64,000 nucleotides of DNA from a virus (IMGVR_UViG_2802429052_000001:27845-91844); one strand, 5' to 3'; shown: positions 4,381 through 19,664, counted from the stretch's first letter. Notes: a model not told the origin generated them from the letters alone. Program-made: numbers and translations.

Positions 4381-4402
4381 CACACCACAGGAGAACTCAC
4401 CC

Positions 4403-4708: not shown

Positions 4709-4709
4709 C

Positions 4710-5864: not shown

Positions 5865-5878
5865 AAGGGAAAACCATT

Positions 5879-6405: not shown

Positions 6406-7091
6406 CCACCGTGATCACGAAACTCAAGGCCCGCGAGGTTGACAACTTCTGTCGCGCCCGCCGCGGCTTGCCGTACGCATTCGGTGGCGCATTCAGTACC
6501 GACCCGAAGCGCTCCACCGACTGCTCGGGTCTGGTATTGCAGACCGGCGCGCTGCTGATGGGGCGCACCGACTGGTCCGGAAACCGCTACGGCTCAACGG
6601 AATCGTTCCGCTTGAACTACCCGATTGTTTTCGACATCGGGTTCAAGCGACTGCCCGCCGGCGGCGTGAAGGCGTTGGGTTTTGCGCCGATCATGCTCGT
6701 CGGGTTACAGCACGGCGGCGGCGGCGAATACAGCCACACCGCGTGCACACTGTTCTACGCCGATGCTCCCGGCGGTGAGATCAAACAGTCGGTGCGCGGT
6801 ATTGACTGGGAGAGCCACGGAAACCGCAACGGCGTCGGAGTCGACTACTACGACAACGCCCGCGCCTGGAATGACCCGCTGTTCAGCGACTTCTGGTACC
6901 TGGATGCCAAGCTCGAAACCGCTGCCACCCCTGCAACGCCACAGCCTGTCATCGTGGGGCCCGCTGACGATCAGCTCAACATGCAGTGGAACTGCCTCGG
7001 CGGCCAAACCCTCGTCGAGGCCGTCGCCCAGATCCGAGACAAGGTGTGCGGCACCGCAGATCGCAGCAAGGCCGGGGTGGTGCTCCGATGA
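6402..7091 (+). CDS. lysA: Lysin A, NlpC/P60-type cysteine peptidase
   Basis: DCSGLV catalytic Cys context, conserved His downstream; AAAGGAG RBS; upstream of lysin B. Confidence 0.7.
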   Translation: MTTVITKLKAREVDNFCRARRGLPYAFGGAFSTDPKRSTDCSGLVLQTGALLMGRTDWSGNRYGSTESFRLNYPIVFDIGFKRLPAGGVKALGFAPIMLVGLQHGGGGEYSHTACTLFYADAPGGEIKQSVRGIDWESHGNRNGVGVDYYDNARAWNDPLFSDFWYLDAKLETAATPATPQPVIVGPADDQLNMQWNCLGGQTLVEAVAQIRDKVCGTADRSKAGVVLR

Positions 7092-8323
7092 GCGCGCGGC
7101 TTCCGCTCAAGCCCGGGTCTTCGGATGCGCGCGGTGACGACGTGTCGCACTGGCAGCGGTGGGGCAAGCAGTACGCCTCGGCGTACGGAGACCTCATGGG
7201 TCCGGTGGACGGGTACTACGGAAACGGTGATGCCGCGTTCACCCGAGAGATGCAGCGCCGACTCGGATTACCGCAGACCGGTGTATTCGATGAGCTGACC
7301 GCCAGCCGGGTCGGCTATGGCGGCACCGTGGCTCCACGCCCGCGCCGCAAGATCTGGTTGTATTCCTCGCCGGGCTCGGGAGCAGATTGGAACGTGGGTC
7401 CGAGCTTCGCCCTCGGCGAGTGGTGCAAGGACGTGCTCAAGATCAACCATCAACCGCTGTCATTCCAAAAGGGCGGCTACCTCGGACTGCTCGGCGGCGA
7501 TGCGAAATTCAGCTACAACGAGGTCACCTACGACCAGTACAAGTCGCTGCAGTACTGCCTCGACCACAACCCCGACATCAACGACCCGGATCTCGAGCTG
7601 TGGTTTTCCGGCTACTCGCAATCGGCCGACGGCATGGAGGACGCACTCGAAATCCTGTTCGGCGACGGCGGTTTCATCCATCCCGGCGACCCGACGCGGA
7701 CACCTTCGCCTCCCGGCAAGTACCGGCATCTGCGCGACCGGATCAACGGCGTGGTCCAGTTCGGCAACCCCTCGACACCCGTCACGGGCATCGCCCGCAA
7801 GGCGCGGCCCGCGTGGCTGGCCAAGCTGGTGCGCAACGTCAACGCCCGGAACGACTTCTACGCCGTCGCGCCAGACAACATCCGCCCGGCGTTCTATGCG
7901 ATCATCGTGCAGGCCGAGCTGGAGCTGCCGTTCTTCGTACACGTACTGCGCATCGCGGTACCCATCATCACCGACTGGGCCACCGCGGCGCTGCCAATCA
8001 TCGGCCCGCTACTCGGCGGGTTCGGCCCCATGGCGCAAATGGGCCTGGGCATGATCTCCGGTCTACAGGGGATGGGGCAGAACCCCCTCTTTGGCAACCT
8101 CATGGGCCAGGCCGGATCCTCGCGCGATACCAAGGTCGACGACGATCTGCGCCGGCTGCTCTCGCCCACCGGAGTACTACAGAACATCCCCGGCCTCATC
8201 GCCCTCATCGCTGCACTACCCGGCCTACAAGCACACGGCGAATACCACCTGCCCAAACCCGAGTTCGGCGGCCGGGACGGCATCGCGGTCGCCTACGACA
8301 TCATCGCCGGATTCCGCCGATAA
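7088..8323 (+). CDS. lysB: Lysin B, mycolylarabinogalactan esterase (cutinase-like) with N-terminal peptidoglycan-binding domain
   Basis: PG-binding-like N-terminus, GYSQS serine-esterase motif, ATGA coupling to lysA; hydrophobic Gly/Met-rich C-terminal extension. Confidence 0.65.
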   Translation: MSARLPLKPGSSDARGDDVSHWQRWGKQYASAYGDLMGPVDGYYGNGDAAFTREMQRRLGLPQTGVFDELTASRVGYGGTVAPRPRRKIWLYSSPGSGADWNVGPSFALGEWCKDVLKINHQPLSFQKGGYLGLLGGDAKFSYNEVTYDQYKSLQYCLDHNPDINDPDLELWFSGYSQSADGMEDALEILFGDGGFIHPGDPTRTPSPPGKYRHLRDRINGVVQFGNPSTPVTGIARKARPAWLAKLVRNVNARNDFYAVAPDNIRPAFYAIIVQAELELPFFVHVLRIAVPIITDWATAALPIIGPLLGGFGPMAQMGLGMISGLQGMGQNPLFGNLMGQAGSSRDTKVDDDLRRLLSPTGVLQNIPGLIALIAALPGLQAHGEYHLPKPEFGGRDGIAVAYDIIAGFRR

Positions 8324-8498
8324 GCCTGGCATAGCTGGACTAGCCCGGACGGTCGAGCACGTGAAGTAGTCCACCCAAAACCCCAGCACAACGGCAGTGG
8401 TGGACGAAATAGCCGAAAACATACCGGGATCTATACCGGGCTACTCATGACCTGCACTGTTTCCGGTTTTGATCACGAAAATGAGAGGACAACCAACC

Positions 8499-8711
8499 AT
8501 GCCCAACGACAACGTACGCCTGGCAATCCACGCTGCGAGTCTGCTCGTCTTCATTATCGCGGTGGCAGTGCTCGTCGCTCTCGATAAGCTCCAGAGTGGC
8601 GATGGCCTGACGTGGATCGTCACCGGCGCCGGTCTCATCACAGCCGGGCTCTCCACAACCAAGATGATTCAGGACCGGCGCGGCAACGGGCCGGACGGGT
8701 CGGCTCAGTGA
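8499..8711 (+). CDS. Holin-like membrane protein (2 TM)
   Basis: Two hydrophobic helices, charged C-terminus, GAGGA RBS, position after lysins. Confidence 0.5.
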   Translation: MPNDNVRLAIHAASLLVFIIAVAVLVALDKLQSGDGLTWIVTGAGLITAGLSTTKMIQDRRGNGPDGSAQ

Positions 8712-9070
8712 TCCTGCCATCAATCCCGATCACCGAATGGCCCCCACTGCCTCCGCTGGCCCGCGACGGATGGGAACTGGCCACCTGGATCGTCATCGCC
8801 CTGGTCGTGCTCGTCCTCGGCCTGTACCGCAAGGATCTTCGCGCCGTGCTCCACCAGGTCAAGAACAGCCACAAGACCAACCTCCGCGACGACGTGGACG
8901 GAGTTGGTGACCGACTCGACGACGTGCTCGACCGGCTCGAAGAGTTCGGCCGCGACCTGCGCGGAATGCGCTCCGATATCGGCGGCCTACGCGGCGAGTT
9001 GAGAGAAGAACGCAAGGACCGCTTAGCATTCGAGCACCAGGTAACAGAGAAGCTGCGCGACTCAAACTAG
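8708..9070 (+). CDS. Membrane-anchored coiled-coil protein (holin/lysis regulator candidate)
   Basis: GTGA overlap with upstream holin; TM helix then charged coiled coil with DIGGLRGE motif shared with B 18991..19353. Confidence 0.5.
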   Translation: MILPSIPITEWPPLPPLARDGWELATWIVIALVVLVLGLYRKDLRAVLHQVKNSHKTNLRDDVDGVGDRLDDVLDRLEEFGRDLRGMRSDIGGLRGELREERKDRLAFEHQVTEKLRDSN

Positions 9071-9082
9071 CCGACCGGAAAC

Positions 9083-9117
9083 GGCCCTGCTCAAATCCAC
9101 TGAGCAGGGGCGTTTTT
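9083..9117. terminator. Rho-independent terminator between convergent lysis operon and toxin cassette
   Basis: GC hairpin CCCTGCTCA..TGAGCAGGG followed by TTTTT. Confidence 0.55.
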
Positions 9118-9130
9118 CGCCGTCTATCGG

Positions 9131-9877
9131 CTAGTGAGATACCTCATCGAGACCATTTTCCCGCAGCGTGGCCGTCATCGCCTCGACAACCCTTGCGGCC
9201 GGCCAATCATCCGGCGCTGAAATCAACGTGCCCCCGGCCAGCTCAGTCGCGGTTAGCCGGTCAACGAGATGGCTGACCGTACCAACCTCGGCGCTGATCC
9301 ACATTCGGTAGCCGACGCCGATCTTCCAGTTGCCACGACGAGCGAGACGACGCACTGCGAGATCCGCGAATTCGGTGGTTGCGGGCTCCCACGTCTCGAC
9401 CACCGCAGCTGTTACGGCGTCGGCATCCACAGACCGCAGCGCGTTCTCATGCGCTTCACGGAGCTCGACTGCCAGACGGCGGCGAGGTAGCCGCTGTCCG
9501 ACTGCTGGGTGACCGGCTGCGATACGCACCAGAGGGGAAACACGGGGGCCTGCGCCCGAAATGGTGAAGGAGTAACCCTCACCGGGTAGCGCATCACCGA
9601 TATCTTCCGAGGCCCCTACGAATTCACGAACGGGATGTTTGCGAACTATGTTGACCAGTTCGTCGGGGGAACCTTCCCACAGTTCCCAATCGTTGTCGGC
9701 CGCAATCTGCCAGCTCGATACGTCGAACGCTGATTGCAACGAACGGAGCAGGCTGTCGGTGCGTGCGGCGATCCATTCGGGAGATTCGCCAGCTGCTACC
9801 CGGAGAGCGAGCAGCGACGGCCGCGATGCGCCCCAGACTGGGTTCTGCACCTCGTTCACAGCTGCCACCTCACTCAT
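9131..9877 (-). CDS. Putative immunity protein for toxin 9874..11892
   Basis: Start overlaps toxin stop (ATGA); position and coupling typical of immunity genes; no recognisable domain. Confidence 0.5.
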   Translation of the reverse strand: MSEVAAVNEVQNPVWGASRPSLLALRVAAGESPEWIAARTDSLLRSLQSAFDVSSWQIAADNDWELWEGSPDELVNIVRKHPVREFVGASEDIGDALPGEGYSFTISGAGPRVSPLVRIAAGHPAVGQRLPRRRLAVELREAHENALRSVDADAVTAAVVETWEPATTEFADLAVRRLARRGNWKIGVGYRMWISAEVGTVSHLVDRLTATELAGGTLISAPDDWPAARVVEAMTATLRENGLDEVSH

Positions 9878-11892
9878 GGTTTCGGAGTGTAGATGACCTC
9901 TACACCGTAGACACCGTTTGAATCGAACAGGTCACGAAGGGCCGCGGCACCATAGGGATCGGATACGTGCCACTCAAGTCTCGCACCTGGTGGGAGCGCG
10001 CCGAGCTGTCGGTCAACTTGTTCGAGCGCCGACTCTGCCCGCCCCGTCCAGTACGCGTTGTCCGGCGCGAACGCCAAGCCCCGAAAGCCGTCCTTTGCTT
10101 CGAGAAAGACCTCTTGCGGGCCGCGATAGGTGTGTCCGTCGAAGGAAACTGGGGCTCCCGTATCTAGGTCATGTTGCACCCATTCGGGCAGTGCTCCGCT
10201 GGGTGTTCGTTCAATTCCGCCGATTTGTTCCTGGTACGGCATCCAGTCTTTGTCGAAGTTGTGGTTGATGTGCTTCCAGCCTGGCTCGGTGTCGCCCTTG
10301 TTCCATGTGGCCTCGGGGGTGCCGGGCGGCCATCCGCCCGGGTGGTGCGGGTCCCCGGAGGTGTAATGCTGGCCGCCGCCAGGATCGAACTCATATGGTG
10401 CGGGCGGCTGATACGACGGCGGGGTGTGGTCACCACCTGCTGAGGGGGCCTGATGGTCCATCACGGGCCAGGAATGCGCGCCGGCGCCGGGCTGCTCGAC
10501 GTGCGCGGACGTCGGTTCGTGGGTGCTGGATAGATCGTGGGTGATGGCGCGTCCTTCGGTGCCGGTGAGGTCGCCGAGCAGTCCGCGCGCACCGGCTGCC
10601 GCTTCGCCTCCGATTGCCCCGCCTCCGAGGGCTTCGGTGCCGTGGATGATGTTTTTGCCGATGAACTCGCCGGGGTGGTTGTAGAACTCTTTGGCTTGTT
10701 CGATGCCCATCTTGGGCGCGGCCAGTGGATCGCTCGTCAGCTCGTGAACCTGTTTGACTGCGCCCAGGCCTACGTCTTTCCATGCTTCGGCGACACCGGG
10801 AGCGCCCGGACCTGCTTGCCCGGTAAGAACTTTCGCTTGTTCGATCTGGCCGTCAATGGTTTTGGTGGCCTCATCGTTAGCGCGGCCCACGATGTCGTTG
10901 AACTGATCACCGGGTGAGTTATGCAGCGGCACCTGACCAGGGGTGCGCATCGGATCGGCGTCGGGGGCAAAACGCGGTGCCTGCGCCCGCTGGACCGCCT
11001 CATTGACCCGCTGCTCGATCTGGTTGGCGGGCACACCCTCGTGTTGCAGGCGCTCGCGGGTCGCCTGGGCGAACGCGGGAACATCGCGATCGGCCAAGGT
11101 GGGGGCGAGCTTGGCCGGTTTGGTCTTGTCGATATCCCCCACACCGGGCATGGCCCCGATGCTGCCGAGCTGATGCCCATCCACCGACGCGGTTTTCGGG
11201 TACAGCTCTTTGTAATTGATCGTCTCCGGGCCGCTGGCGGCTGCGGCTGGGGTGGTGCTGGCCGGGTCGGTGGCCTTGGGGTACTGCTGTTTGTAGTCGA
11301 TCGTCTCGGCTGCTGGTTGGCCTGGCGTGGCCTCGCGCAGGATCTTGCGCGCATCGACTAGGGCCGCTTTGGGGTTGATGCGGGAGAGCATTTTCTCGCG
11401 CGCGGCATCGGTCTGTGTCTTGAGTTCTTGGGTGGCCTTCTCCCACTTGGCGACATACTCGCGTAGTTCGCGCTCAGCGTCAGCCACGATCTGTTTGTTG
11501 CGGGCCACCGACTTTTCGCTTTCACCCTCAGCCGGGTGATAGGTCATCGTGAAGTCTTGACCGACCGTGACGCCCTCGCGCAACGCGTTGGTGACGATGT
11601 TCTGCCCGCTGGTCAACGGTGGCAACACCTCGAACTCGATGGTGGCGCTGACGAGCTTGACAGCATCTTCGGTGGTGTCGTCGGCGTTATCGGTGCCCTT
11701 GCAGTCATCGGCGGCGGCTTCCTGGGCGGCGCCCGCGAATTGCCCAGACCAGTAGGTTCCGTTCGGGGTGGTGGCCCACCGTTTGTAGTCGTCGTAGGTG
11801 GCTTTCAACGCCGCTGTGCGCGGCCGCAAACTGTCCACCACCGCCATATAGTCGTTGGCCTTCTTGGCCATGAACTCATCGAGGATTGTCAC
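9874..11892 (-). CDS. Polymorphic toxin (672 aa) with WXG100-like N-terminal domain (YWSGQ), Pro-rich linker and C-terminal toxin domain of unknown fold
   Basis: GTG start with GAGG RBS; N-terminal helical domain containing W-x-G; long low-complexity linker; distinct C-terminal about 120 aa. Confidence 0.65.
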   Translation of the reverse strand: MTILDEFMAKKANDYMAVVDSLRPRTAALKATYDDYKRWATTPNGTYWSGQFAGAAQEAAADDCKGTDNADDTTEDAVKLVSATIEFEVLPPLTSGQNIVTNALREGVTVGQDFTMTYHPAEGESEKSVARNKQIVADAERELREYVAKWEKATQELKTQTDAAREKMLSRINPKAALVDARKILREATPGQPAAETIDYKQQYPKATDPASTTPAAAASGPETINYKELYPKTASVDGHQLGSIGAMPGVGDIDKTKPAKLAPTLADRDVPAFAQATRERLQHEGVPANQIEQRVNEAVQRAQAPRFAPDADPMRTPGQVPLHNSPGDQFNDIVGRANDEATKTIDGQIEQAKVLTGQAGPGAPGVAEAWKDVGLGAVKQVHELTSDPLAAPKMGIEQAKEFYNHPGEFIGKNIIHGTEALGGGAIGGEAAAGARGLLGDLTGTEGRAITHDLSSTHEPTSAHVEQPGAGAHSWPVMDHQAPSAGGDHTPPSYQPPAPYEFDPGGGQHYTSGDPHHPGGWPPGTPEATWNKGDTEPGWKHINHNFDKDWMPYQEQIGGIERTPSGALPEWVQHDLDTGAPVSFDGHTYRGPQEVFLEAKDGFRGLAFAPDNAYWTGRAESALEQVDRQLGALPPGARLEWHVSDPYGAAALRDLFDSNGVYGVEVIYTPKP

Positions 11893-11902
11893 GGCTGGAG
11901 CC

Positions 11903-12214
11903 TCATGCGCGTTGCGGCGGCTGATAGATGCTCGGCAACTTGTAGTACCCGGCGTGCAGCTGCTCGGTGGTCAAGAAGCCTCTGTGTGCCTCGTCGTATA
12001 CATCGCTGATCGCCTCCAGGCGAGCGGCGGCGATGCGCTCCACATCCGAGATCGCTTTCGAGAAAGCCTCAAGCGCCGCCAAACCCGGATCCGCCCCAGG
12101 GGTCACATGGTCTGCCGGGATACGCCCCCGGATCTGCCTGGCACTCTCGCGCAGGTGCGGACCAATCTTGGCCATCGCGTCAAGGTCGGCCTGCAACACC
12201 TTGTCATCGCTCAC
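11903..12214 (-). CDS. Small alpha-helical accessory protein (WXG100/Lap-like helper candidate)
   Basis: GTG start with AAGGGGG RBS; about 100 aa helical protein immediately upstream of toxin. Confidence 0.4.
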   Translation of the reverse strand: MSDDKVLQADLDAMAKIGPHLRESARQIRGRIPADHVTPGADPGLAALEAFSKAISDVERIAAARLEAISDVYDEAHRGFLTTEQLHAGYYKLPSIYQPPQRA

Positions 12215-12330
12215 ACCTGCCCCCTTGCCCGATCTGGTTACGGGGCAGACTACAGGCACAGTAGGAAACCGGTCGTGCAATGCCGATCACCGGGCGGCAA
12301 TCTGTCAACAGCAGCGGGGTTGCCCGGGGC

Positions 12331-12573
12331 TCAGCGCCCGCGGGTCGCCAGCTCAGGGCACTCGCTCATGACCTCTTTGTCCACGACAGCCCTGGCAGCA
12401 TCGTAACTGCTGTAGAGGTGTTGATCTTCTGAGAACGTTAGGGCCACGTCGGTCGGCCCCATGCCGGGGTACTTGCGCAGCGTGTCACACACAATCCCAG
12501 TTAGACGAGGACTGGCGTGCGCAATTGGAGCGCACCCGAGAGTGATCACCGCGGCCAGCACGAGCGCCTTCAT
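12331..12573 (-). CDS. Small secreted protein (signal peptide, Cys pairs)
   Basis: N-terminal signal peptide MKALVLAAVITLGCAPIAHA; ATGA coupled to upstream gene. Confidence 0.45.
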   Translation of the reverse strand: MKALVLAAVITLGCAPIAHASPRLTGIVCDTLRKYPGMGPTDVALTFSEDQHLYSSYDAARAVVDKEVMSECPELATRGR

Positions 12574-12920
12574 TCGATGTGCCCCGGCTCGCCAGGAGGG
12601 ATAGTGTCAGCGGTGACGGTGTAGGTCTCGATCCCGCTCCGCTCGGCGGGGATCACGTCATGCGCCCACTGGGGGCAGCCACCGTAGTAGTAGACGCCGC
12701 CGCAACTGCTGTGGACATATTGCGGGTGCCAGTATCGGCGCGCTCGCTCCCATGATCCGTCCGGGTTGATCGGTCCGTCGCACATCTCGAGAATCTGTGG
12801 ATTGAGGCCGAGTAGCGGCACGCGCGCACAGCCGGGTGGTGGTGGGTCAGCATTGGCCGACGGGCTGAACATCAACGCCGCCGCGCAAATTGCGACCACA
12901 ACCCCCGTGATCTTGTTCAT
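12570..12920 (-). CDS. Secreted Cys-rich protein (116 aa)
   Basis: Signal peptide ending ANADPPPPGC; multiple Cys. Confidence 0.45.
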   Translation of the reverse strand: MNKITGVVVAICAAALMFSPSANADPPPPGCARVPLLGLNPQILEMCDGPINPDGSWERARRYWHPQYVHSSCGGVYYYGGCPQWAHDVIPAERSGIETYTVTADTIPPGEPGHIE

Positions 12921-12943
12921 GCGCGGATCGTACTGCGATTTAC

Positions 12944-13180
12944 TCAGCTTCCGGCCAGGAATGCCACCAGTCGATCTACCTTGTCGATCCCCGCGAAATG
13001 CCGGGGCGCCCTGCGACTATCCTGACCATCGGCCCACAAGATCACGCCGGTGTGCGCGTACATGACGGAAACCCACGACGCGGTGCCGGGGCGGCGGTAG
13101 ACGAGCTCGCCACTGTCGCCTCCCACGGCTACCCAGCCATGCACGCGTGCGGCCCGATCGACGGTCTGCTGTCCAGTCAT
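12944..13180 (-). CDS. Hypothetical protein next to integrase (possible recombination directionality factor)
   Basis: ATGA coupling with integrase stop; small size. Confidence 0.3.
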   Translation of the reverse strand: MTGQQTVDRAARVHGWVAVGGDSGELVYRRPGTASWVSVMYAHTGVILWADGQDSRRAPRHFAGIDKVDRLVAFLAGS

Positions 13181-14091
13181 GTCGATTGCCCTTCTGTTGC
13201 GATCGTCGAACGCCGCCGGGTGGCCTTCTTAATTCGGGGAGCGGCACACAGCCGGGAAGCGAGCGCATCGACGCCAGCAGCCCCGCGTCGCGCGGAATAT
13301 CCGAGGTAAACCATTGTGGTAGAGAGGCTTTGATGGCCGAGGGCTTCCTGTATGTAGCGGATATCCACGCCGGCCTCCAGCAGTGCCGTGGCGAATCTAT
13401 GGCGCAGTGTGTGCAGCGTGTAGGGGAGTTTCAGGTTCGCCAGAAACTCCGAAGACGTAACCGAGACATAGTTCGGAGTGACGGGCCCACCCTCGGGGCG
13501 CCGGAACATTGCGCCCGGCTGGCTCATCTGGTTACTCAGGCGCTCAAGCACAATCGGAGGTACCCGCACAATCCGCTGCTTCCCGCCCTTTCCGTGCACA
13601 GTCAGGAACGCGCCGCCGTCGCCGTCCGGCCGAAAATCGCTGCGCTCCATTGCCGCGATCTCTCCGGCGCGCAAACCGCAGTAGCCGGCCAGGAGTAGCC
13701 ACGCATGCATGTCCGACCCGATAGGCGCGGCCATCAGTGCGAGGTCGAGGTGATCGTCGGGGATCGGCCGGGGCATCCGGCGCTTGATCTTCGGCTGGAC
13801 CAGACGTGCGGATGGGTCCGCGGCGATGAGGTTGGCCCCGTGGGCCCAGCGGTAGAACGCGCAGACGTGGCTAGTGTAGGTCTGAACGCTTGAGGCGCAC
13901 ACCCGTAGGGAGCGCTGCCATGCCTCCAGCTGTTCGGGTGTGGCGTCCATCAATGCGGTGTCGCCCAGCCAGCGGTCGAGACGATCGAGTTGGCCGAGAC
14001 GGTGCTCGATGGTTTTCGGAGTCATGTTGCGGAGCTTTAGATACGCTGTGAATGCACTGAGAGCCGCCCCGGAGCTGTGAAGGTTTTCCAT
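13177..14091 (-). CDS. int: Tyrosine integrase (prophage A)
   Basis: SAM-like N-terminal domain, catalytic HTLRHRFAT (R..HxxR) and terminal Tyr in TTMVYL. Confidence 0.85.
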   Translation of the reverse strand: MENLHSSGAALSAFTAYLKLRNMTPKTIEHRLGQLDRLDRWLGDTALMDATPEQLEAWQRSLRVCASSVQTYTSHVCAFYRWAHGANLIAADPSARLVQPKIKRRMPRPIPDDHLDLALMAAPIGSDMHAWLLLAGYCGLRAGEIAAMERSDFRPDGDGGAFLTVHGKGGKQRIVRVPPIVLERLSNQMSQPGAMFRRPEGGPVTPNYVSVTSSEFLANLKLPYTLHTLRHRFATALLEAGVDIRYIQEALGHQSLSTTMVYLGYSARRGAAGVDALASRLCAAPRIKKATRRRSTIATEGQST

Positions 14092-14099
14092 GCCGAATA

Positions 14100-14330
14100 T
14101 GAATAGCGGCTAGGTGATCTTGATCTGACGGTTGTTGCAGGTCAGATGCTTTTTAGAGCGTAACCCGTGACCCTTTGCCGACCGGCGCAAGCCTGACTTA
14201 CGCGGTTCATACTCACGAGTATGAACCGTATAAGTCCGCGTTCCGGCGCGCCAGCTCAGGTCACGGTTTCCGCTCGGGGAAGCAACTGACCTGCAACAAG
14301 TCCACCCGTTCGGTTTCCTAGCAAAAGGAC
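14100..14330. repeat. Quasi-palindromic junction between divergent integrases (putative att/P-arm region); perfect 10-bp inverted repeat GTTCATACTC-ac-GAGTATGAAC at 14205..14226
   Basis: Arms about 80% identical as inverted copies (TTGTTGCAGGTCAG, CCGTGACC, CCGGCGC blocks). Confidence 0.55.
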
Positions 14331-14341
14331 GGGCTGTACTT

Positions 14342-15232
14342 ATGTCACCTGTGAATAATGACACCGTCGTCTCAGAGTTTGCTCGTTATCTGAAGCTGAA
14401 GAACTTCACAGCTAAAACGATCGAGCACCGCTTGGGGCAGATTGCTAGATTAGCTAGATGGCTTGGGGAAACATCTTTGCTGGAGGCCACCCCAGAGCAG
14501 CTTGAGGCCTGGCAAGGTTCGTTGCGGGTGTGCCCGTCTAGCATCCAGACCTACACGTCGCATGTTTGCACCTTCTATCAGTGGGCCTACCGCTGTGGTC
14601 GCACTAGCGAATACGTCGCAAAAGACTTGGTGCAACCGAAGATTCAGCGCCGCATGGCCCGGCCCATCCCCGAGGACCACTTGCGGATCGCGCTGACCGG
14701 CGCGCCTGTCGGGACTGACATCCATGCATGGCTGCTATTGGCCGGATACTGCGGTCTGCGCGCTGGGGAGATCGCGCAGATGTCACGCAACGACTTTCGC
14801 CCCGACGAAGGCGGCGGTGCCTTCCTGACCGTGCACGGCAAGGGAGGGAAGCAACGCATCGTCCGAGTTGCCCCCGAGGTCATGCAACGTCTGGCAATCC
14901 AGCTGAGCCGACCCGGCACCATGTTCTGCCGTCCCCGCGGCGGGCCAGTAACACCCAACTACGTCTCGGTCGTGGGTGCGGAATTCCTAACCAATCTCGG
15001 GCTCCCGTACACGCTGCACACCCTGCGACACAGGTTCGCGACCGTGCTCGCCGACGAAGGCGCGGACCTTCGCGATATCCAGGAATTGATGGGGCACGAG
15101 AGCCTGGCCACCACCATGCGGTATCTCGCCTACTCAACCCGACGTGGAGCGGCGTCCGTCGACTCGCTCGCGTCGCACCTGTGCCCCTCGCGGTCGTCGG
15201 CATCAAGAATGGAACAGCGCAGTCACAAGTAG
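14342..15232 (+). CDS. int: Tyrosine integrase (prophage B), about 70% identical to integrase A
   Basis: Same SAM-like N-terminus and HTLRHRFAT...Y catalytic motifs. Confidence 0.85.
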   Translation: MSPVNNDTVVSEFARYLKLKNFTAKTIEHRLGQIARLARWLGETSLLEATPEQLEAWQGSLRVCPSSIQTYTSHVCTFYQWAYRCGRTSEYVAKDLVQPKIQRRMARPIPEDHLRIALTGAPVGTDIHAWLLLAGYCGLRAGEIAQMSRNDFRPDEGGGAFLTVHGKGGKQRIVRVAPEVMQRLAIQLSRPGTMFCRPRGGPVTPNYVSVVGAEFLTNLGLPYTLHTLRHRFATVLADEGADLRDIQELMGHESLATTMRYLAYSTRRGAASVDSLASHLCPSRSSASRMEQRSHK

Positions 15233-15313
15233 GTGTCACATCTAGGAGGTCGGCCAGCGGACACGAGGGGATGCCCATATGGTCTCCGAATGCCCGCTCG
15301 CCGGTCCCCCTGG

Positions 15314-15595
15314 ATGAACGAACGCGCCCAGTTGCTCGTGCGCTATCTCGCCGAGCAGCACGCCCTGAACATGACCGAGGCCATGGCGCGAGAGCGTATT
15401 TCGGCGAAAGTCGACCTCACGGCCGAGCTGATGGGCATCAGCCGGCAGTCGGCCAAGGCCTACGTCGATGAGGACTACGTGCGCCGGATGGCCGACAGCT
15501 TCGCGGCAGCGGTCCGAGACCTACAAGCTCGGTCACCGCGCCGTGGACTGAGGGCGGTGCCCGACCAGTCTGGCATGGCGACGGAATGGCAATAA
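15314..15595 (+). CDS. Hypothetical HTH-like protein downstream of integrase (possible excisionase/regulator)
   Basis: ORF immediately after int; ISRQSAKAYV helix-turn-helix-like segment; start uncertain (15233, 15290 or 15314). Confidence 0.3.
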   Translation: MNERAQLLVRYLAEQHALNMTEAMARERISAKVDLTAELMGISRQSAKAYVDEDYVRRMADSFAAAVRDLQARSPRRGLRAVPDQSGMATEWQ

Positions 15596-15686
15596 CCCTG
15601 CGAACGCCGTCGAAACGTGCTGTTCGGATGGGTATCGCTTCGCACTCCTATTGCGGTGGCAAACTGGGCGGCGATACCATCCGGCA

Positions 15687-15998
15687 ATGAGTGGAGGGGT
15701 CCTCGGGGTTTCGCCAGAAGAGTTGCAGCGGGTTTCGCGATTGGTCACCGCGACCGCAGGCGGTTTGGCGACTGAGCTGGACGCCCTCGACGCCGAGGTG
15801 TCGCGATTTGTCGGCTCCGGTTGGTCTGGTGGGTCGGCGAGCGCGTTCACCGCGCGGTGGTTCCAGTGGTACGAGGGCGCCAAGCTGGTGCACCAGGGCC
15901 TTGCGCAGATGGGCAGCTTGTTGGCGAGCACCGGGGAGGCGTTCGTGGGCCAGGATGCGGCCACCGCCGCCAACGTCAACGCCGCTGGCGGAATGTAG
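15687..15998 (+). CDS. WXG100 family protein (Esx-like), first of pair
   Basis: About 100 aa helical hairpin with WSGGS W-x-G motif. Confidence 0.65.
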   Translation: MSGGVLGVSPEELQRVSRLVTATAGGLATELDALDAEVSRFVGSGWSGGSASAFTARWFQWYEGAKLVHQGLAQMGSLLASTGEAFVGQDAATAANVNAAGGM

Positions 15999-16007
15999 GG
16001 GGAGGGG

Positions 16008-16298
16008 ATGTCAGGTGAATTCGGCGTTGTGCCCGACGAGCTCATGCGGATCATCGAGCGCATGGCAGAGGTTGAGCAGCGAGCCGAGGCGTCGATAGCG
16101 GCCATGGACACCGAGGTGCACAACCTGCACGCCACCTTCACAGGTGAAGCTGCCACGGCCCACACGCAGGCGCACGAGAAGTGGGCCAAGGGCGCCGAGC
16201 AGATGCGCGAAGCACTCAGGGGCCTACGTGGCGCGAGCCACGCGGCGCACGGCAATTACACGGGCGCCGCTGCCAAGAACATGCAGAACTGGGCATAG
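16008..16298 (+). CDS. WXG100 family protein (Esx-like), second of pair
   Basis: 96 aa, HEKWAKGAEQ central motif, tandem with upstream WXG100 gene. Confidence 0.6.
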   Translation: MSGEFGVVPDELMRIIERMAEVEQRAEASIAAMDTEVHNLHATFTGEAATAHTQAHEKWAKGAEQMREALRGLRGASHAAHGNYTGAAAKNMQNWA

Positions 16299-16302
16299 CG
16301 CG

Positions 16303-17952
16303 ATGGCACCCCCGATTCATGTCGACCCGGTTGCCCTCGATGGCGCCGGTAGAACGGTCTCCAGCTCGGTGGGCGGGTGGGGCTCTGCGCTGTCGGCATT
16401 GCAGTCGGCGCTGTCGAGTTCGGCCGGTATGGGTGGGGATGACCCCGCCGGGATCGTGTTCGCGCGATCGTATGACTCGTCAGCCAAGGAACTCCTTGAG
16501 GCGATGGTGGACGTGTCCAACGGTGCGGGGCGGGCCGCTGACGGCATCCGGGCCTCGGCGACCAACTATTCGCGTGCCGAGGTGGCGTCCAACATCGACG
16601 GCAAGGGTGGCGACCCACTGCCCGCCGCCTCACCCACTCCCTCGGTGAAGGCCGGGACCCCGCCGTCTGCGGTGGGTAGCGATGTTGGCGACCCACCCGG
16701 TTGGTTTCTGGTGGAGCCGTTCATCGGAATGATTTGGCCAAACGGCGATTCGGCGAAGCTGCGCGCCGCTGGCACCGCGTGGACCGCTGCCGGTGCGGCA
16801 TTCACCGCTCAGCAGGCCGGGCTGGCGGGGGCGCAGGCAACCGCGCAGGCCCAGCAGATACCCGAAGGCCCCAAGATCGATAGCGCGTTCAAGACGATTG
16901 ACGGTGCTGTCGGCGAGGTCGGCGGCATGTGCAGCACCATGGGCGCCAAGCTCAACGACTACGCGGCCAAGATCGATACGGCGCATGCGTCGATACTGGA
17001 TCTGTTGGCCCGCTTGGTAAATCCGCTGACCGGTGCCAAACAGGTCGTGGACTGGATTACCGGCGAAGACGACGACGAAATAAAGAAAATCGCCACCGAC
17101 ATCCGCAACATCGTCAACCAGTTCAAGTCGGAAGTGCAGTCGCTCGCGCTGCTGCTGGCACCGATCATCCAGGGCGCATCGATGGTCATCGACACCCTAA
17201 AGTCGTTGGTACAGATGCAAGTTGAGCTTTTCGGCAACGAGATATACAACACCGTGGCCCCGCTAGTGAACGCCACTGCATCCTTTGGGCAGGCCATGAT
17301 CGACAACCCCGGCCAGACAATCCAGATGGCAGCTGGAGTCGGCATGATGGCGGTCGGCTACGACATGATGGCTGCGGCGGGCGTCGGTGAGGTCTTTACC
17401 GGTGGGGCTGCCACGCCGGTCGCTGCGCCCGTCGCTGTTGCCGGTGCTGGCCTGCTCGCTGGTGGCGCGGTCGTCGCCATACCGCCAGCCCTCGACCTCT
17501 CGAAAGAGGCTGCGGTCAACGGTGTGACGGTGATGGAGGCCCGGACTGGACGACCCGGCGAGGGCATCAACCGTGGCGACGACCGCGATTCCATCGGCAC
17601 GTTCACAGGCCGAGGCGGCACGGCGCGGGGATACGGCCGCCAACCAGAGGCGGAGGGTGTCGCCAAGTACAAAGACGAGACCGGGCGTTGGGTGAGCACC
17701 GAGACGAAAAAGTCGAGAGTGGACGGCGTTGACCATGGCCGCTACTACGACGGGCATGCCCGTAAGCCGGACGGTACGTACGAGGGTATCGAGGTGAAGT
17801 CGGGGGGTGCATCGAGGGACGGCCAGCAGAGGGCATTCGATGATGCTGTGTCGTATGAGAATCCGGCCTATGTGACGATCACCAATGAACAAGGCGTCGT
17901 GGAAACAGTGAAGATCACCTCGGTGAGAGTTGTGGAGGTTCCTGCAGAATGA
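16303..17952 (+). CDS. Polymorphic toxin (about 549 aa): helical N-terminal secretion domain, Ala/Gly-rich middle, C-terminal toxin domain (nuclease-like, unassigned)
   Basis: ATG right after WXG100 stop; long ORF; C-terminal about 130 aa module (DHGRYYDGHARKPDGTYEGIEVKSGG) distinct from toxin A. Confidence 0.65.
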   Translation: MAPPIHVDPVALDGAGRTVSSSVGGWGSALSALQSALSSSAGMGGDDPAGIVFARSYDSSAKELLEAMVDVSNGAGRAADGIRASATNYSRAEVASNIDGKGGDPLPAASPTPSVKAGTPPSAVGSDVGDPPGWFLVEPFIGMIWPNGDSAKLRAAGTAWTAAGAAFTAQQAGLAGAQATAQAQQIPEGPKIDSAFKTIDGAVGEVGGMCSTMGAKLNDYAAKIDTAHASILDLLARLVNPLTGAKQVVDWITGEDDDEIKKIATDIRNIVNQFKSEVQSLALLLAPIIQGASMVIDTLKSLVQMQVELFGNEIYNTVAPLVNATASFGQAMIDNPGQTIQMAAGVGMMAVGYDMMAAAGVGEVFTGGAATPVAAPVAVAGAGLLAGGAVVAIPPALDLSKEAAVNGVTVMEARTGRPGEGINRGDDRDSIGTFTGRGGTARGYGRQPEAEGVAKYKDETGRWVSTETKKSRVDGVDHGRYYDGHARKPDGTYEGIEVKSGGASRDGQQRAFDDAVSYENPAYVTITNEQGVVETVKITSVRVVEVPAE

Positions 17953-18419
17953 GGATTGACAAGCCAACCCACATCGCAGAATCAAACCTGGCCAAAATGC
18001 GTACCAGTGACTTTACGGAAGAAATACCAGGCCAGCTCGCAGCGGGGATAAATCGTTTAGGCACAAAGGGATACACGTACTACTCAATCTACCCGGTTGC
18101 GCCAGAGGTCCGATACGATGAGTTCCCATACTCGCCTGAGCGCATCCAAGCCTGTGGTAGGGATGGCAGGCTCACGGTCGAGATTAAACGGCTTGAGGCT
18201 GATGGTGTGCGGCGCCATTACACCATCGGAAGACCTTCTGCAGCAAACGAATCCGAGACCGAAGTGGTCTACAACGGCGATAGCGCTTACCCGGTACGCC
18301 CATCAGAGGTATTGACACCAACCGAGGCCATCAGACTATTCCTGGGCTACTACGACACAGGCGACGTTGCGCCAGGCTGGCACCTGCGCGAGCAACCCGA
18401 ATTCGCCGACGCCGGGTAG
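17949..18419 (+). CDS. Putative immunity protein for toxin 16303..17952
   Basis: ATGA overlap with toxin stop; 156 aa cytoplasmic protein. Confidence 0.5.
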   Translation: MRIDKPTHIAESNLAKMRTSDFTEEIPGQLAAGINRLGTKGYTYYSIYPVAPEVRYDEFPYSPERIQACGRDGRLTVEIKRLEADGVRRHYTIGRPSAANESETEVVYNGDSAYPVRPSEVLTPTEAIRLFLGYYDTGDVAPGWHLREQPEFADAG

Positions 18420-18493
18420 GGTGCATGTCCACCGCTGTGTGGGCACTCCTGTTACCACTTCTGACCTGTGCGTGATCTTGTAATCTGCCGTCC

Positions 18494-18922
18494 ATGGCGA
18501 GAGAGATGGGCACCCCGGCGAAAGCGTTGTGGGTGTGTCTGGGGGTATTTGTCGGGCTGCTGGCGTTCATGGCGGCGTGCGCAATAGGGCTGTCGGGCCA
18601 ATCCGGAAACGTTGGTGTGAGCGTTGAAGTGAGGCAAAAGTACGCGATCGAGACATGCCAGTCTGCTCTCATGAAGCGTATGCGTGACCCTGAGAGTGCG
18701 AAGTTCGCCGATGAGGTGGCCCGTGAAGGTGTGGCGCATGGAGGTGGGCGTGATCCCGAGTTGGACTACTCGCCCGACCGCGGTGATATCTACTTTACGG
18801 TGACGGGCAATGTCAACGCCAAGAACGCGTTTGGTGGTTACACGGGGATGCGTCCCTACACCTGCGATGCGGTGGTGGACAGAAACGGCACAACGCAAAG
18901 CCGGGCCCGCGTGCTGGATTAG
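18494..18922 (+). CDS. Lipoprotein/secreted protein (142 aa)
   Basis: N-terminal TM/signal with lipobox-like MAACA; last gene before terminator. Confidence 0.45.
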   Translation: MAREMGTPAKALWVCLGVFVGLLAFMAACAIGLSGQSGNVGVSVEVRQKYAIETCQSALMKRMRDPESAKFADEVAREGVAHGGGRDPELDYSPDRGDIYFTVTGNVNAKNAFGGYTGMRPYTCDAVVDRNGTTQSRARVLD

Positions 18923-18937
18923 TGCACTAGAAACACT

Positions 18938-18976
18938 AATAGCGCCCCTCACCGGGTCGGGGTGAGGGGCGCTATT
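18938..18976. terminator. Strong bidirectional terminator between toxin cassette (+) and lysis operon (-)
   Basis: 16-bp perfect GC-rich stem AATAGCGCCCCTCACC..GGTGAGGGGCGCTATT followed by TTTCGTT. Confidence 0.65.
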
Positions 18977-18990: not shown

Positions 18991-19353
18991 TTAGTGTGGC
19001 CAGCGCTCGATCAGCTCTCGGATGTGCTGGTCTGCCCTCCCGCGCTCGGTGCGCTCGGTTCGCATTTCCTCGCGCAGGCCTCCGATGTCGCGGGCCTGCT
19101 GGCCCTGTTGTTCCTCGATTCGCTTGATCCCCTTGAGAATTTCGTCGAGATCAACGCGCATGTTGGTCTCATGGTCGTTCTCGGTCTGCTCACGGATGGC
19201 TCCGGTATCGGCGGCGATAGCGCCCAGCTTCTTACGGTGCGCGAACGTGGCCGTGGCCCAGGCCACCGCGACCGATCCGCAGATCGGGGCGAGTAGCGCC
19301 ATCGTGAGTGCCGCGAACTGCTTTGGGGTATCGATGCTGCTGACATCCACCAT
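18991..19353 (-). CDS. Membrane-anchored coiled-coil protein (homolog of A 8708..9070)
   Basis: TM helix plus coiled coil; DIGGLREE motif; follows holin. Confidence 0.5.
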   Translation of the reverse strand: MVDVSSIDTPKQFAALTMALLAPICGSVAVAWATATFAHRKKLGAIAADTGAIREQTENDHETNMRVDLDEILKGIKRIEEQQGQQARDIGGLREEMRTERTERGRADQHIRELIERWPH

Positions 19354-19367
19354 TTCGGTCAGCAGGC

Positions 19368-19664
19368 TCACCGGCCGCTGCCCGCCACGAGCTTGAACAG
19401 GCTGGACGGTACGACCGCCTTGGTGGCCGAGGCGGTACCGGATCGGCCCAGCTTGATCGATGCCGCAGAGAAGATGAGCGATACCGCCAGCGTTCCGGCG
19501 CCGACATTGATACCGCTCTGCCAATCGATCTCGGTCAGGGCTGCGTTCACCGCGGCGTCGGCCAGGTTGGCGCCGACGATGAAGCCACCCGCGAACGTCT
19601 TGATAGCGCGCTCGGCAGCGTCAATGGCGGCGTCTTTGAGCCAGGGCGGGATAGTGATGTGCAT
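19368..19664 (-). CDS. Holin-like membrane protein
   Basis: GAGAGGA RBS 6 nt before ATG; amphipathic/TM segments; unrelated in sequence to the holin-like gene of A. Confidence 0.5.
   Translation of the reverse strand: MHITIPPWLKDAAIDAAERAIKTFAGGFIVGANLADAAVNAALTEIDWQSGINVGAGTLAVSLIFSAASIKLGRSGTASATKAVVPSSLFKLVAGSGR

Follow-up and report, generated by a model that had tools for sequence, protein, structure and literature searches.

Integrase-proximal toxin cassettes in two temperate phages at attB-13, with probable export and diversification by recombination

Why do two prophages that lie side by side carry, at the same place in their genomes, toxin genes that do not resemble each other? The window that we analysed, a 64,000-nucleotide stretch of viral DNA (IMGVR_UViG_2802429052_000001:27845-91844), holds two prophages, A and B, and gene calls and Pfam domains place a toxin/immunity cassette between the integrase and the convergent lysis operon in each, as the original prediction had proposed. 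That prediction treated positions 9131-18976 as a single toxin-exchange hotspot flanked by terminators. The range merges two slots and also takes in what separates them, the two integrases and the att junction; the hotspot itself is borne out by comparison with related prophages. Very probably, these are the integrase-proximal cargo slots of two temperate phages at attB-13, occupied by PEST1 and PEST3 cassettes that would be exported and would diversify by recombination.

Two prophages at one attachment site

Sequence comparison shows that the two prophages lie head-to-head, integrase to integrase. The host is a Mycobacterium abscessus-complex genome, and both phages are temperate and inserted at the single site attB-13. 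Prophage A (1 to ~14221, plus strand) is the right end of a mosaic prophage with MabN-like tail genes. Prophage B (14204-63999, reversed) equals prophiGD52-1 (prophi52-1, MW584208, MabC, attB-13) save for two bases; the reported match of MW584208 to 14205-64000, on the minus strand, is 100.0%, and the differences, at 14204 and 14209, were read from the first bases of the record.

The att junction (14110-14311), defined by its sequence and inverted repeats, is identical in independent assemblies. It comprises, on the minus strand, what is left of the 3' end of repressor A (14110-14209), then a shared 12-bp att core, TACTCACGAGTA (14210-14221), which lies within a 26-bp palindrome (14203-14228), and, on the plus strand next to the integrase gene of prophage B, the 3' remnant of repressor B (14222-14311). 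The core is seen again at 63988-63999. The truncated prophage form of repressor B (63473-64000, plus strand) ends at attL, where the first base of the host (64000) supplies the last letter of its TAA stop; such stop codon formation has been described (Dedrick 2021, PMC8092301). Record annotation places attP inside the repressor gene; attP in the repressor, truncation at attL and a 3' remnant by the integrase at attR, the features of integration-dependent immunity, are all found. The attL of prophage A lies beyond the window, and the intact repressor-integrase arrangement is present in three related loci (L004, L007 and L031).

Integration-dependent immunity with arm-less 'simple' integrases in BPs/Brujita is reportedly the subject of work by Broussard in 2013 and by Lunt & Hatfull in 2016. 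The prophages in the window resemble BPs/Brujita, as that system is presented in a further source (arm-less 'simple' tyrosine integrases and integration-dependent immunity; PMC8138268), in having attP in the repressor gene, a remnant beside the integrase at attR and a host-completed stop at attL, as well as small integrases (296-304 aa) that consist of a SAM-like domain and a catalytic domain alone. Unlike BPs/Brujita, the host site here is palindromic and two opposite prophages have one common hybrid site: attB-13 is a near-perfect 22-bp palindrome. We found no description of a palindromic attB-13 occupied both ways in the literature on these prophage cassettes, and this aspect of the site may be new.

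Integrase A (304 aa; 13177-14091, minus strand; Pfam Phage_integrase E 4.5e-20) has a SAM-like N-terminal domain and is 85.9% identical in amino acids to its counterpart in MabO prophi91-3 and about 80% identical to MabN integrases. Integrase B (296 aa; 14342-15232, plus strand; Phage_integrase E 2.8e-21) is 100% identical in eight records and 99.3-99.7% identical in three others. The two share 69.3% amino acid identity over 277 aa, close to the 70% first estimated.

The genes next to the integrases had been regarded as accessory cargo. They are indeed dissimilar between the prophages, but they belong to the lineage backbone, MabN/MabO-like in A and MabC-like in B. In prophage A they are three small genes (12331-13180, minus strand) for a putative lipoprotein of 80 aa, a secreted protein of 116 aa with a CDGP domain (Pfam CDGP E 1.7e-14) and a 78-aa protein, with the signal peptide and lipobox read from the sequences; the trio corresponds to prophi62-3 gp65 (80% aa), gp66 (36%) and gp67 (61%), with a 90% match to prophi91-3 gp71. 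In prophage B the gene after the integrase (15233-15595, plus strand) is annotated in MW584208 as helix-turn-helix DNA-binding; its product has no Pfam match and is 98.9% identical to that of the prophiGD25-1 helix-turn-helix gene, and MabC backbone homology stops at 15564. Downstream of cassette B lies another MabC backbone gene (18506-18922, plus strand) for a 138-aa membrane or secreted protein (phrog_2320), 95.7% identical to prophiGD25-1 gp68 and replaced by a different gene in prophiGD44-1. The lysis operons converge on the cargo. The last lysis gene of prophage A (8708-9070, plus strand) is DUF2746-like, with a weak Pfam match, and belongs to phrog_404 (E 4.8e-22); a 120-aa call in an identical locus (L003) maps there. 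The lysis operon of prophage B ends at 18991-19664 (minus strand) with a DUF2746 protein (18991-19371) and a holin (19368-19664), according to Pfam (DUF2746, Phage_r1t_holin) and the MW584208 annotation.

The toxin/immunity cassettes

Cassette A, on the minus strand, consists of genes for a 103-aa WXG partner (11903-12214), a 672-aa toxin (9874-11892) and a 248-aa immunity protein, Imm A (9131-9877). The toxin combines a PEST1-type N-terminal secretion domain, a linker and a C-terminal Tox-REase-5 domain (PF15648; aa 550-645, E 9.8e-07, 29.7 bits where the cut-off is 25, aligned to positions 1-94 of the 95 in the profile), a domain carried by 9 of 12 toxin A homologues. It is 98.1% identical to prophiGD25-1 gp70, annotated as Tox-REase-5 with a WXG motif, and over residues 8-454 it shares 91.5% identity with prophi88-1 gp91; prophi88-1 and prophi_GD43-6, the PEST1 example of Abad 2023, match the window over the same stretch. 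A WSG motif can be read at aa 48-50. The partner, called a 'WXG motif protein' in relatives' annotation, is 98% identical to prophiGD25-1 gp71 and 84% to prophi88-1 gp92. Pfam WXG100 models recognise neither this partner nor the toxin N-terminus, and cassette A is assigned to PEST1 because of its homology to annotated relatives. No family was found for Imm A in Pfam or NCBIfam; its position and homology (98.8% to the 'polymorphic toxin immunity protein' of prophi62-2, 95.6% to the prophiGD25-1 counterpart) make it the probable immunity protein. The three-gene layout is that of PEST1 Tox-REase-5 cassettes (prophiGD25-1, prophi57-1 and prophiGD43A-3, with the secretion module of prophiGD43A-6; PMC8092301). 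Unlike the prophiGD25-1-type cassettes, cassette A sits in a MabN/MabO-like backbone, not a MabC one; it also does without the 142-aa downstream gene and adjoins a different hairpin.

Cassette B forms, with an upstream leader, a mobile unit (15651-18426, plus strand) delimited by homology to MabD prophiGD17-1. It contains two WXG100 genes (15723-15998 and 16008-16298; Pfam WXG100 E 4.7e-14 and 7.5e-11), a 549-aa toxin (16303-17952) with a Pfam WXG100_2 domain at aa 142-236 and, downstream, the 156-aa Imm B (17949-18419), which has no family match. This layout shows no substantive difference from the prophiGD17-1 PEST3 cassette. The unit is 96.9% identical to it in nucleotides (toxin 98.2%, Imm 100% and WXG proteins 96-98% in amino acids), and the two prophages have no other similarity; it is the very cassette whose transfer between prophages of MabC and MabD has been demonstrated (Amarh 2023, PMC9934374). 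The prophiGD17-1 toxin was toxic and was relieved by its Imm in work with plasmids pLA6 and pLA15 (Abad 2023, mSystems, PMC10654092). Imm A and Imm B are given an immunity role because of position and co-variation and, for B, because of 100% identity to the tested protein.

The C-terminal domain of toxin B (17620-17949, about aa 440-549) is variable among relatives. It has no Tox-REase-5 match, and it looks like a nuclease of predicted PD-(D/E)xK (restriction-endonuclease-like) fold, a class recognised by an alpha-beta-beta-beta-alpha-beta core and conserved D ... (D/E)xK catalytic residues. Previous work found the PEST3 toxin domain not assignable bioinformatically and the PEST3 N-terminal domain structurally similar to M. 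tuberculosis CpnT (Abad 2023, PMC10654092). The fold and motif proposed here for the prophiGD17-1 type of toxin domain go beyond that study, and the reading is possibly new.

Both cassettes have the make-up of the PEST/PT-Imm class. They lie in prophages, 1.5-5 kb from the attR-type junction at 14210-14221; small WXG100/ESAT-6-like genes precede the toxin, one in A and two in B (one marks PEST1/2, two PEST3); the toxin joins a WXG-like secretion domain at its N-terminus to a variable toxin domain at its C-terminus; and in both slots the start of the downstream Imm overlaps the stop codon of the toxin, with Imm varying along with the toxin domain. CpnT, with EsxE/EsxF, and polymorphic toxins generally are built alike, from a conserved delivery domain at the N-terminus and a variable toxin domain at the C-terminus; polymorphic toxin systems also have the cognate immunity gene next to the toxin and recombine where the two domains meet. 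Unlike CpnT, the cassettes are prophage-borne near an att junction and their toxin domains are nuclease-like, whereas that of CpnT is a NAD glycohydrolase. Polymorphic toxin systems at large, among them Rhs, CDI and MuF phage toxins, are reportedly treated in Jamet 2017.

The proteins of the two slots, integrases aside, show no similarity to each other, as had been claimed for the toxins, immunity proteins and other slot genes: every A-B pair has a BLASTP E of at least 0.079, and profile-profile comparison (hhalign) of the toxin domain families gives a probability of 0.5%. Similarity between A and B is limited to the integrases and the DUF2746 lysis-operon proteins.

Exchange of cassettes and of toxin domains

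Comparison of the locus across related prophages reveals variable content. Integrases at least 99.3% identical to that of prophage B occur in 11 records; in four of them the cassette is A, and in the remaining seven it is B or a variant of B. In prophiGD25-1, for instance, an integrase 100% identical in amino acids to integrase B accompanies a cassette 95.7% identical in nucleotides to cassette A of the window. A close IMG/VR relative of prophage A (98% nucleotide identity across the integrase) has a third cassette, bounded at 12570 and 9073, whose toxin is of the NlpC/P60 type and whose immunity gene encodes a lipoprotein, and MabN prophiGD53-3 has no toxin annotated in the slot. The original prediction named conserved content in related prophages as the finding that would count against it; since these prophages vary in content here, that objection fails.

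Exchange also extends into the toxin gene, where the toxin domain has been exchanged together with the immunity gene. The segment 9131-10379 (Imm and toxin domain of A) is 95.8% identical to MabF prophi62-2, whereas the whole toxin is only 51.5% identical in amino acids; Imm is 98.8% identical there, against about 68% in nucleotides for the toxin N-terminal region. Conversely, 10538-12225 (toxin A N-terminus and WXG partner) is 88% identical to MabL prophi88-1, where the toxin domain and Imm differ. These matches locate an intragenic breakpoint in the toxin A linker, between 10379 and 10538. A variant with a diverged toxin domain is found in prophiCCUG48898T-1, where Imm is only 63% identical.

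Breakpoints fall at the stop codons of immunity genes, 40-70 bp before the first WXG gene, in the toxin linker and at hairpin edges. Of the boundaries proposed originally, the hairpin edges hold; on the other side the breakpoint lies after the backbone gene or genes that follow the integrase, not at the integrase 3' end. Sequence comparison therefore supports a polymorphic cargo locus diversified by recombination. Prophage toxin cassettes of this kind and their exchange have been published before: PT-Imm cassettes beside att junctions and expressed in lysogens, with RNA-seq of prophiGD43A-3 (Dedrick 2021, PMC8092301), cassettes swapped between MabC and MabD prophages (Amarh 2023, PMC9934374), and the PEST1-3 superfamilies with recombination between and within cassette genes (Abad 2023, PMC10654092).

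Hairpins at the lysis side of the slots

Strong hairpin terminators had been proposed to bound the slots. The hairpins are there, but only on the lysis side; nothing comparable was found on the integrase side of either slot, leaving one hairpin per slot. Hairpin A (9080-9117), which separates the lysis operon from cassette A, has a stem of 9 perfect pairs at 9085-9109 that can be extended to 9080-9117 (-29.2 kcal/mol, z = -4.9), and a T-run on the plus strand (GCGTTTTTCG) that provides the only clear U-tract, the others being partial. It coincides with a mosaic boundary: MabB-type homology spans 9000-9119, cassette homology begins at 9117-9131, and in L031 the alternative cargo stops at 9073. 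Hairpin B (18938-18976), with a stem of 16 perfect pairs (-37.6 kcal/mol; z = -4.9 for the plus strand, -5.9 for the minus strand), is a conserved island between variable flanks, with prophiGD44-1 homology starting exactly at 18937 and prophiGD25-1 homology stopping near 19000.

Their strength and position suggest that both are bidirectional terminators. The window has eight perfect hairpins with stems of at least 9 bp, against 0-4 per shuffle, and no shuffle gave a stem longer than 12 bp. Among nine relatives folded at the matching convergence point, z ranges from -1.1 to -7.5, the weakest being prophi88-1, whose intergenic region is no better than shuffled sequence, and at least four different stem sequences occur there; in MabC, MabN and MabO relatives the hairpins at this point are related to hairpin B. 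A simple terminator scan gave no overall excess (11 sites against 9.2 expected), and U-tracts are short.

Alternative explanations

The two prophages differ nearly everywhere, in tail, lysis and integrase-adjacent backbone genes as well as in integrases of 69% identity, and a comparison of these two genomes alone therefore cannot show exchange; each toxin might have been inherited vertically in a long-separated lineage, with no hotspot at all. The wider comparison makes this extremely improbable, as integrases identical to that of B adjoin either cassette, cassette A recurs in a MabC backbone and cassette B in an unrelated MabD prophage, an A-like phage holds a third cassette, and the breaks in homology are sharp and at gene ends.

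The hairpins could instead be conserved sites involved in recombination or packaging, or mobile palindromic repeats located there by chance, given that their sequence is conserved across clusters with differing flanking genes, that mosaic breakpoints abut both sides and that U-tracts are weak. We regard this as quite unlikely: a strong hairpin marks the lysis/cargo convergence in most of the relatives folded, and the variety of stems in one position suggests selection for structure and placement; mycobacterial intrinsic terminators, moreover, often have no long U-tract. It is also unlikely that the cassettes act inside the lysogen as anti-phage abortive-infection or addiction (toxin-antitoxin) modules. 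Such a role would suit two nuclease-like toxin domains, an activity common in defence systems, and a position by the integrase that is a classic lysogenic-conversion or defence slot, and prophage-mediated defence has been named as a possibility (Abad 2023, PMC10654092). Against it, both cassettes have WXG100-type partner genes and the WXG100_2 domain of toxin B resembles the CpnT secretion domain, an architecture typical of type VII substrates that would serve no evident purpose in a toxin acting inside the cell; the N-terminal module also recombines separately from the toxin domain, as in secreted polymorphic toxins.

A model for the cargo slot

Exported effectors in an exchangeable slot thus remain the preferred reading. 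Its gene content, the A/B dissimilarity, the breakpoints and the reshuffling of cassettes and backbones come from our analysis; lysogenic expression, and toxicity and immunity for the prophiGD17-1 cassette, come from the literature. Transcription of the cassette in the lysogen would begin on the integrase side and proceed in the direction of the lysis operon, ending at the hairpin shared with that convergent operon. The WXG partner or partners and the WXG-like N-terminal domain of the toxin may together form the signal for export by the host type VII (ESX) system, a route that published work likewise infers, and the immunity protein would neutralise the toxin domain in the producer. Virulence, bacterial competition and phage defence have been considered as roles, none with direct support (Abad 2023, PMC10654092).

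Diversity would arise by recombination between co-resident or superinfecting phages. Whole cassettes may be swapped, with one breakpoint at the stop codon of the immunity gene and the other 40-70 bp ahead of the first WXG gene; alternatively, the toxin domain and immunity module alone may be swapped through a breakpoint in the toxin linker. For such probably homology-driven exchange, the conserved integrase and backbone genes would supply one shared flank, and the hairpin together with the lysis genes the second.

Toxin-immunity cassettes in the integrase-proximal slots

The window (GC content about 64%) carries sequence from two prophages whose integrases face each other across 250 bp. Window 14205-64000, read on the minus strand, is Mycobacterium phage prophi52-1 (MW584208; 100.0% as reported), a cluster MabC prophage with attB-13 and host M. 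abscessus GD52; the only mismatches to this record are at 14204 and 14209. The remainder (1-14203, plus strand) forms the right end of another prophage, and no record of the phage collection matches the whole segment. Identity is 95.7% with MabN prophi62-3 in the tail genes, 88-90% with MabM and MabB prophages in the lysis region, 95.6% with MabC prophiGD25-1 in the toxin cassette and only 70-79% with MabN, MabO and MabC in the integrase region. We refer to the mosaic right end as prophage A and to the prophi52-1-like element as prophage B. The window ends on the TAA stop (63998-64000) of the truncated repressor of prophage B, one base beyond the prophage; the sequence may derive from a record of a predicted prophage, not from an arbitrary cut of a genome. 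An 87-nt tRNA-Ala(GGC) called by ARAGORN at 25652-25738 (minus strand), inside a minus-strand ORF (23894-26419), is probably a false positive, since Table 1 of Dedrick et al. 2021 (PMC8092301) gives 0 tRNAs for prophiGD52-1. An apparent host junction within the tail genes of prophage A in the related locus L004 proved to be a scaffold gap of Ns.

By gene content and domains, both slots between integrase and lysis operon hold a toxin/immunity (Imm) cassette, as originally predicted. Slot A, on the minus strand, contains Imm A (9131-9877), toxin A (9874-11892; Tox-REase-5, 29.7 bits against a cut-off of 25), a small partner (11903-12214) and three small genes, one with a CDGP domain (12331-13180), followed by int A (13177-14091). 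On the plus strand, int B (14342-15232) is followed in slot B by an HTH gene (15233-15595), two WXG100 genes (15723-15998 and 16008-16298), toxin B (16303-17952; WXG100_2), Imm B (17949-18419) and the gene for a 138-aa protein (18506-18922), and then by convergent DUF2746 and holin genes. In BLASTP comparisons of A with B, the integrases are 69.3% identical over 277 aa, close to the predicted 70%, and the DUF2746 proteins that end the two lysis operons are 39% identical; no other protein pair scores below E = 0.079, in agreement with the claim that the cargo is dissimilar. The predicted range of 9131-18976 describes a valid observation and merges two slots, with the prophage junction in between.

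Prophage cassettes of this kind have been named PEST and divided into superfamilies PEST1-3 by Abad et al. 2023 (PMC10654092), whose PEST-bearing prophages number roughly 1,000, with prophiGD43A-6 as the example of PEST1, and prophiGD17-1, which has two WXG genes and a CpnT-like N-terminus, as that of PEST3. Slot A is of PEST1 type and slot B of PEST3 type, which accounts for the missing similarity between them.

Small proteins in both slots (12331-12920 and 18506-18922), namely an 80-aa protein with 'LGC', the CDGP-domain protein and the 138-aa protein, have N-termini resembling a signal peptide or lipobox and are candidate lysogenic-conversion factors. Searches of Pfam (E up to 10), NCBIfam, PHROGs and PDB sequences were uninformative for the Imm proteins, the toxin B domain, partner A and the small backbone genes. 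In L005 (GCA_900136335.1), an otherwise identical assembly, four stretches of about 250 bp each are unaligned (window 7263-7505, 8148-8393, 16644-16887 and 17262-17530, the last two inside toxin B) and are probably assembly gaps; toxin B is split there by the gene caller, and a 139-aa piece is named 'ADP-ribosyltransferase Mav domain protein' by NCBI.

Exchange of cassettes among related prophages

When the right ends of eleven prophage records were mapped to the window by homology, the content at this position was found to be variable. One backbone carries several cassettes. In prophiGD25-1, the integrase is 100% identical to int B in amino acid sequence and the HTH gene 98.9%, but homology to prophage B breaks at 15564 and resumes at 18439, and the insert between these points is a cassette 95.7% identical to that of slot A (9131-12254). 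Of eleven records whose integrase is 99.3% or more identical to int B, four have cassette A and the other seven have cassette B or one of its variants. The slot of prophage A's own lineage is likewise polymorphic: the IMG/VR locus L031 matches the window at 98% identity over int and the CDGP gene and at 96% over the lysis genes, and between window 12570 and 9073 it holds a different cassette, in which a WXG-like gene accompanies a 436-aa toxin bearing NlpC/P60 (E 4.5e-14) and an Imm that resembles a lipoprotein. The slot of prophi62-3 contains yet another toxin and that of prophiGD53-3 no annotated toxin. At least six different slot contents are found across 19 Mycobacterium records of this integrase family.

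Conversely, one cassette occurs on unrelated backbones. Window 15651-18426 is 96.9% identical to MabD prophiGD17-1 (98.2% for toxin B and 100% for Imm B in amino acid sequence), and the rest of that locus has no match. Modules are also swapped within cassettes. Imm A and the toxin domain (9131-10379) are 95.8% identical to MabF prophi62-2, whose toxin is only about 68% identical to toxin A in the N-terminal region (nucleotides) and 51.5% over the whole protein (amino acids), whereas the toxin A N-terminus and partner (10538-12225) are 88% identical to MabL prophi88-1, in which the toxin domain and Imm differ. Because opposite halves of cassette A match these two prophages, an intragenic breakpoint can be placed between residues of about 451 and 504 of toxin A, upstream of Tox-REase-5. 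In prophiCCUG48898T-1, cassette B has a diverged toxin domain and an Imm that is only 63% identical. All three patterns bear out the original prediction of a polymorphic cargo locus diversified by recombination.

Hairpins and breakpoints

Strong hairpins are present at both predicted places, where the lysis and cargo operons converge. Hairpin A has nine perfect pairs at 9085-9109 and extends to 9080-9117 (-29.2 kcal/mol, z -4.9), and hairpin B has 16 perfect pairs at 18938-18976 (-37.6 kcal/mol, z -4.9 and -5.9 on the two strands). The window contains eight perfect hairpins with stems of at least 9 bp, compared with 0-4 in shuffles, and no shuffle yielded a stem longer than 12 bp. A generic terminator scan showed no overall enrichment (11 found, 9.2 expected), and its top hits are hairpins A and B. 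A strong hairpin at the same convergence point occurs in most of nine relatives folded (z -1.1 to -7.5), the exception being prophi88-1. Hairpins at this convergence point (L011 4855-4934, L012 6120-6255, L013 4509-4564 and L014 4166-4229) fall into at least two sequence families that are common to prophage clusters with unrelated flanking genes. The stem family GCCCCTCAYC...GGTGAGGGGC, for instance, is shared by MabC, MabN (prophiGD53-3) and MabO prophages with different flanking genes. Stems of 9-10 bp also occur in perfect palindromes or hairpins at 6250-6274, 26768-26792, 46503-46529 and 63195-63218; the last of these, CAATTTCCCGGCGCCGGGAAATTG, precedes the repressor ORF (63473) by about 250 bp and is a possible operator.

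On the distal side, both cassettes end no more than 20 bp from the Imm stop codon (9131 in A; 18420-18439 in B). Hairpin A divides MabB-type lysis sequence, with homology to 9119, from the cassette, which starts at 9117-9131, and hairpin B is a conserved island, with prophiGD44-1 homology from exactly 18937 and prophiGD25-1 homology until near 19000. Edges at the hairpins, together with the shared stem family, support the proposed boundary at the putative terminators for the distal side. The proximal boundary, which had been expected at the integrase 3' end, instead precedes the first WXG gene by 40-70 bp (at 12254 in A and 15651 in B).

A predicted nuclease domain in toxin B

The toxin of prophiGD17-1 was described by Abad et al. 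2023 (PMC10654092) as having no bioinformatically informed toxin domain. Within residues 407-549 of its homologue toxin B, P83-D84, E91-V92-K93-S94 and Q103 (query numbering) are invariant in twelve homologues, and the AlphaFold2 model of this domain has a mean pLDDT of 74.9 (about 80-93 over residues 41-140). These residues and the model suggest that the C-terminal domain is probably a PD-(D/E)xK nuclease. Foldseek with the domain gave no significant match, and profile-profile comparison detected no relationship to the Tox-REase-5 domain of toxin A; a 'DGH...ExK'-like string noticed by eye in both toxins is thus unsupported as homology. If true, the assignment provides a directly testable activity for an experimentally toxic domain.

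A palindromic attachment site and head-to-head prophages

A single 12-bp core, TACTCACGAGTA (14210-14221), is common to the two prophages and is repeated at attL of prophage B (63988-63999). The core lies within a 26-bp palindrome (14203-14228) made of the int-side arms of both phages, and there is no host DNA between the integrases (14092-14341), only a single att core with an int-side arm on each side. An artefact of concatenation or assembly was considered, as only one base follows prophage B in the window; it was rejected because the junction is identical across several independent NCBI and Logan assemblies. The isolate behind GCA_900136975.1 is one carrier of the pair. The same junction occurs in a second head-to-head pair, on IMG/VR contigs of 86 kb (L033, 1654-1677) and 68 kb (L034, 3838-3861), in which a prophage 99.8-99.9% identical to MabN prophi62-3 faces a MabC prophage whose cassette is of PEST3 type. 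Two prophages occupying attB-13 in inverted orientation are therefore a recurrent arrangement. That strain GD52 itself carries such a pair is not supported, as the prophi52-1 record opens on an ordinary arm of host type, AGTTCT. The predicted outer site of prophage A, beyond the window, is ...GCATTCTTACTCGTGAGTA/AGAACTCGG...; its predicted attL (ATTCTTACTCGTGAGTAAGAAC) was not found in IMG/VR, where all hits to a broader pattern were ordinary MabC-type attL sites. The cited M. abscessus prophage literature (including PMC9934374 and PMC10654092) makes no mention of the inverted arrangement and describes direct tandem prophages at attB-2 as unusual.

The empty attB-13 reads GTTCTTACTC-AC-GAGTAAGAAC in M. 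chelonae (L022, 5105-5130), M. franklinii and other species (also L021, L023-L026, L028 and L029). It is a 22-bp palindrome whose sole asymmetry is the central AC, and a short-chain dehydrogenase (adh_short) gene on the opposite strand has this centre in its GTG start codon. An arm-less Brujita integrase class was reportedly described by Lunt and Hatfull in 2016. Int A and int B, which are small and have only SAM-like and catalytic domains, resemble this class (PMC8138268). The dehydrogenase gene fits the description of MAB_3947 in Dedrick et al. 2021 (PMC8092301). Given the palindrome, small arm-less integrases of MabC and MabN type could insert either way, which would generate head-to-head double lysogens with a single hybrid site made from two int-side arms. 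The TAA that truncates, and hence activates, the phage repressor would be supplied in either orientation.

The free attP of prophage A, with repressor and int contiguous (L004, 9860-9990; L007, 1-120; L031, 6380-6450; L032, 13870-13940), has a GT centre, whereas the MabC and MabN attP sites have AC. This form is found both in scaffolds from NCBI and in IMG/VR as contigs of 42-43 kb; excised copies, unintegrated phage and tandem copies are candidate sources of attP read-through in assemblies. The GT centre raises the idea that the phage may 'remember', and then prefer, the inverted orientation. As a cause of inversion, however, the flipped dinucleotide is countered by L033 and L034, where a prophi62-3-like prophage is inverted; prophages nearly identical to prophi62-3 are seen in both orientations, and prophi62-3 in GD62 has AC in its own sense. 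The flip may thus have followed from inverted residence instead of bringing it about.

Insertion in either orientation at the symmetric attB-13, giving head-to-head double lysogens, taken jointly with the nuclease assignment for toxin B, is a tentative proposal whose chance we put slightly under even. The toxin domain and the att junction are modest leads, the orientation-symmetric junction being a by-product outside the cassette finding. A palindromic attB used both ways would bear on integration-vector design and on the formation of double lysogens.

Cassette exchange and its biological role

WXG-100 polymorphic toxin-immunity cassettes adjoining the attachment junctions of M. abscessus prophages, in 19-21 configurations and expressed in lysogeny, were described by Dedrick et al. 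2021 (PMC8092301). 'Active exchange' of cassettes was reported by Amarh et al. 2023 (PMC9934374) from a swap between MabC and MabD (prophiGD17-1), the counterpart of slot B, and recombination both between and within cassette genes by Abad et al. 2023 (PMC10654092), who also found that the prophiGD17-1 toxin blocks M. smegmatis transformation in the absence of its Imm. The observation and the exchange interpretation are correct and already published, and the finding is a rediscovery that mainly confirms this picture at one more locus. What this locus adds are breakpoints at nucleotide level and a conserved hairpin at the convergence point as one edge of the variable slot.

Gene order, domains and breakpoints come from the present analysis; expression and toxicity are taken from the literature on cassettes that are 95-100% identical (PMC8092301, PMC10654092). 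In the mechanism that we consider best supported, lysogenic transcription would run from the int side to the shared hairpin, a putative terminator; the toxin would be exported through a type VII (ESX) system, with the WXG partner(s) and toxin N-terminal domain as signal, and neutralized in the producer by its cognate Imm; and recombination in the conserved flanks and in the toxin linker would diversify the cassettes. Modular exchange spreads toxin/immunity specificities between unrelated prophages, and a role for the cassettes in the virulence, competition or phage resistance of M. abscessus has been suggested.
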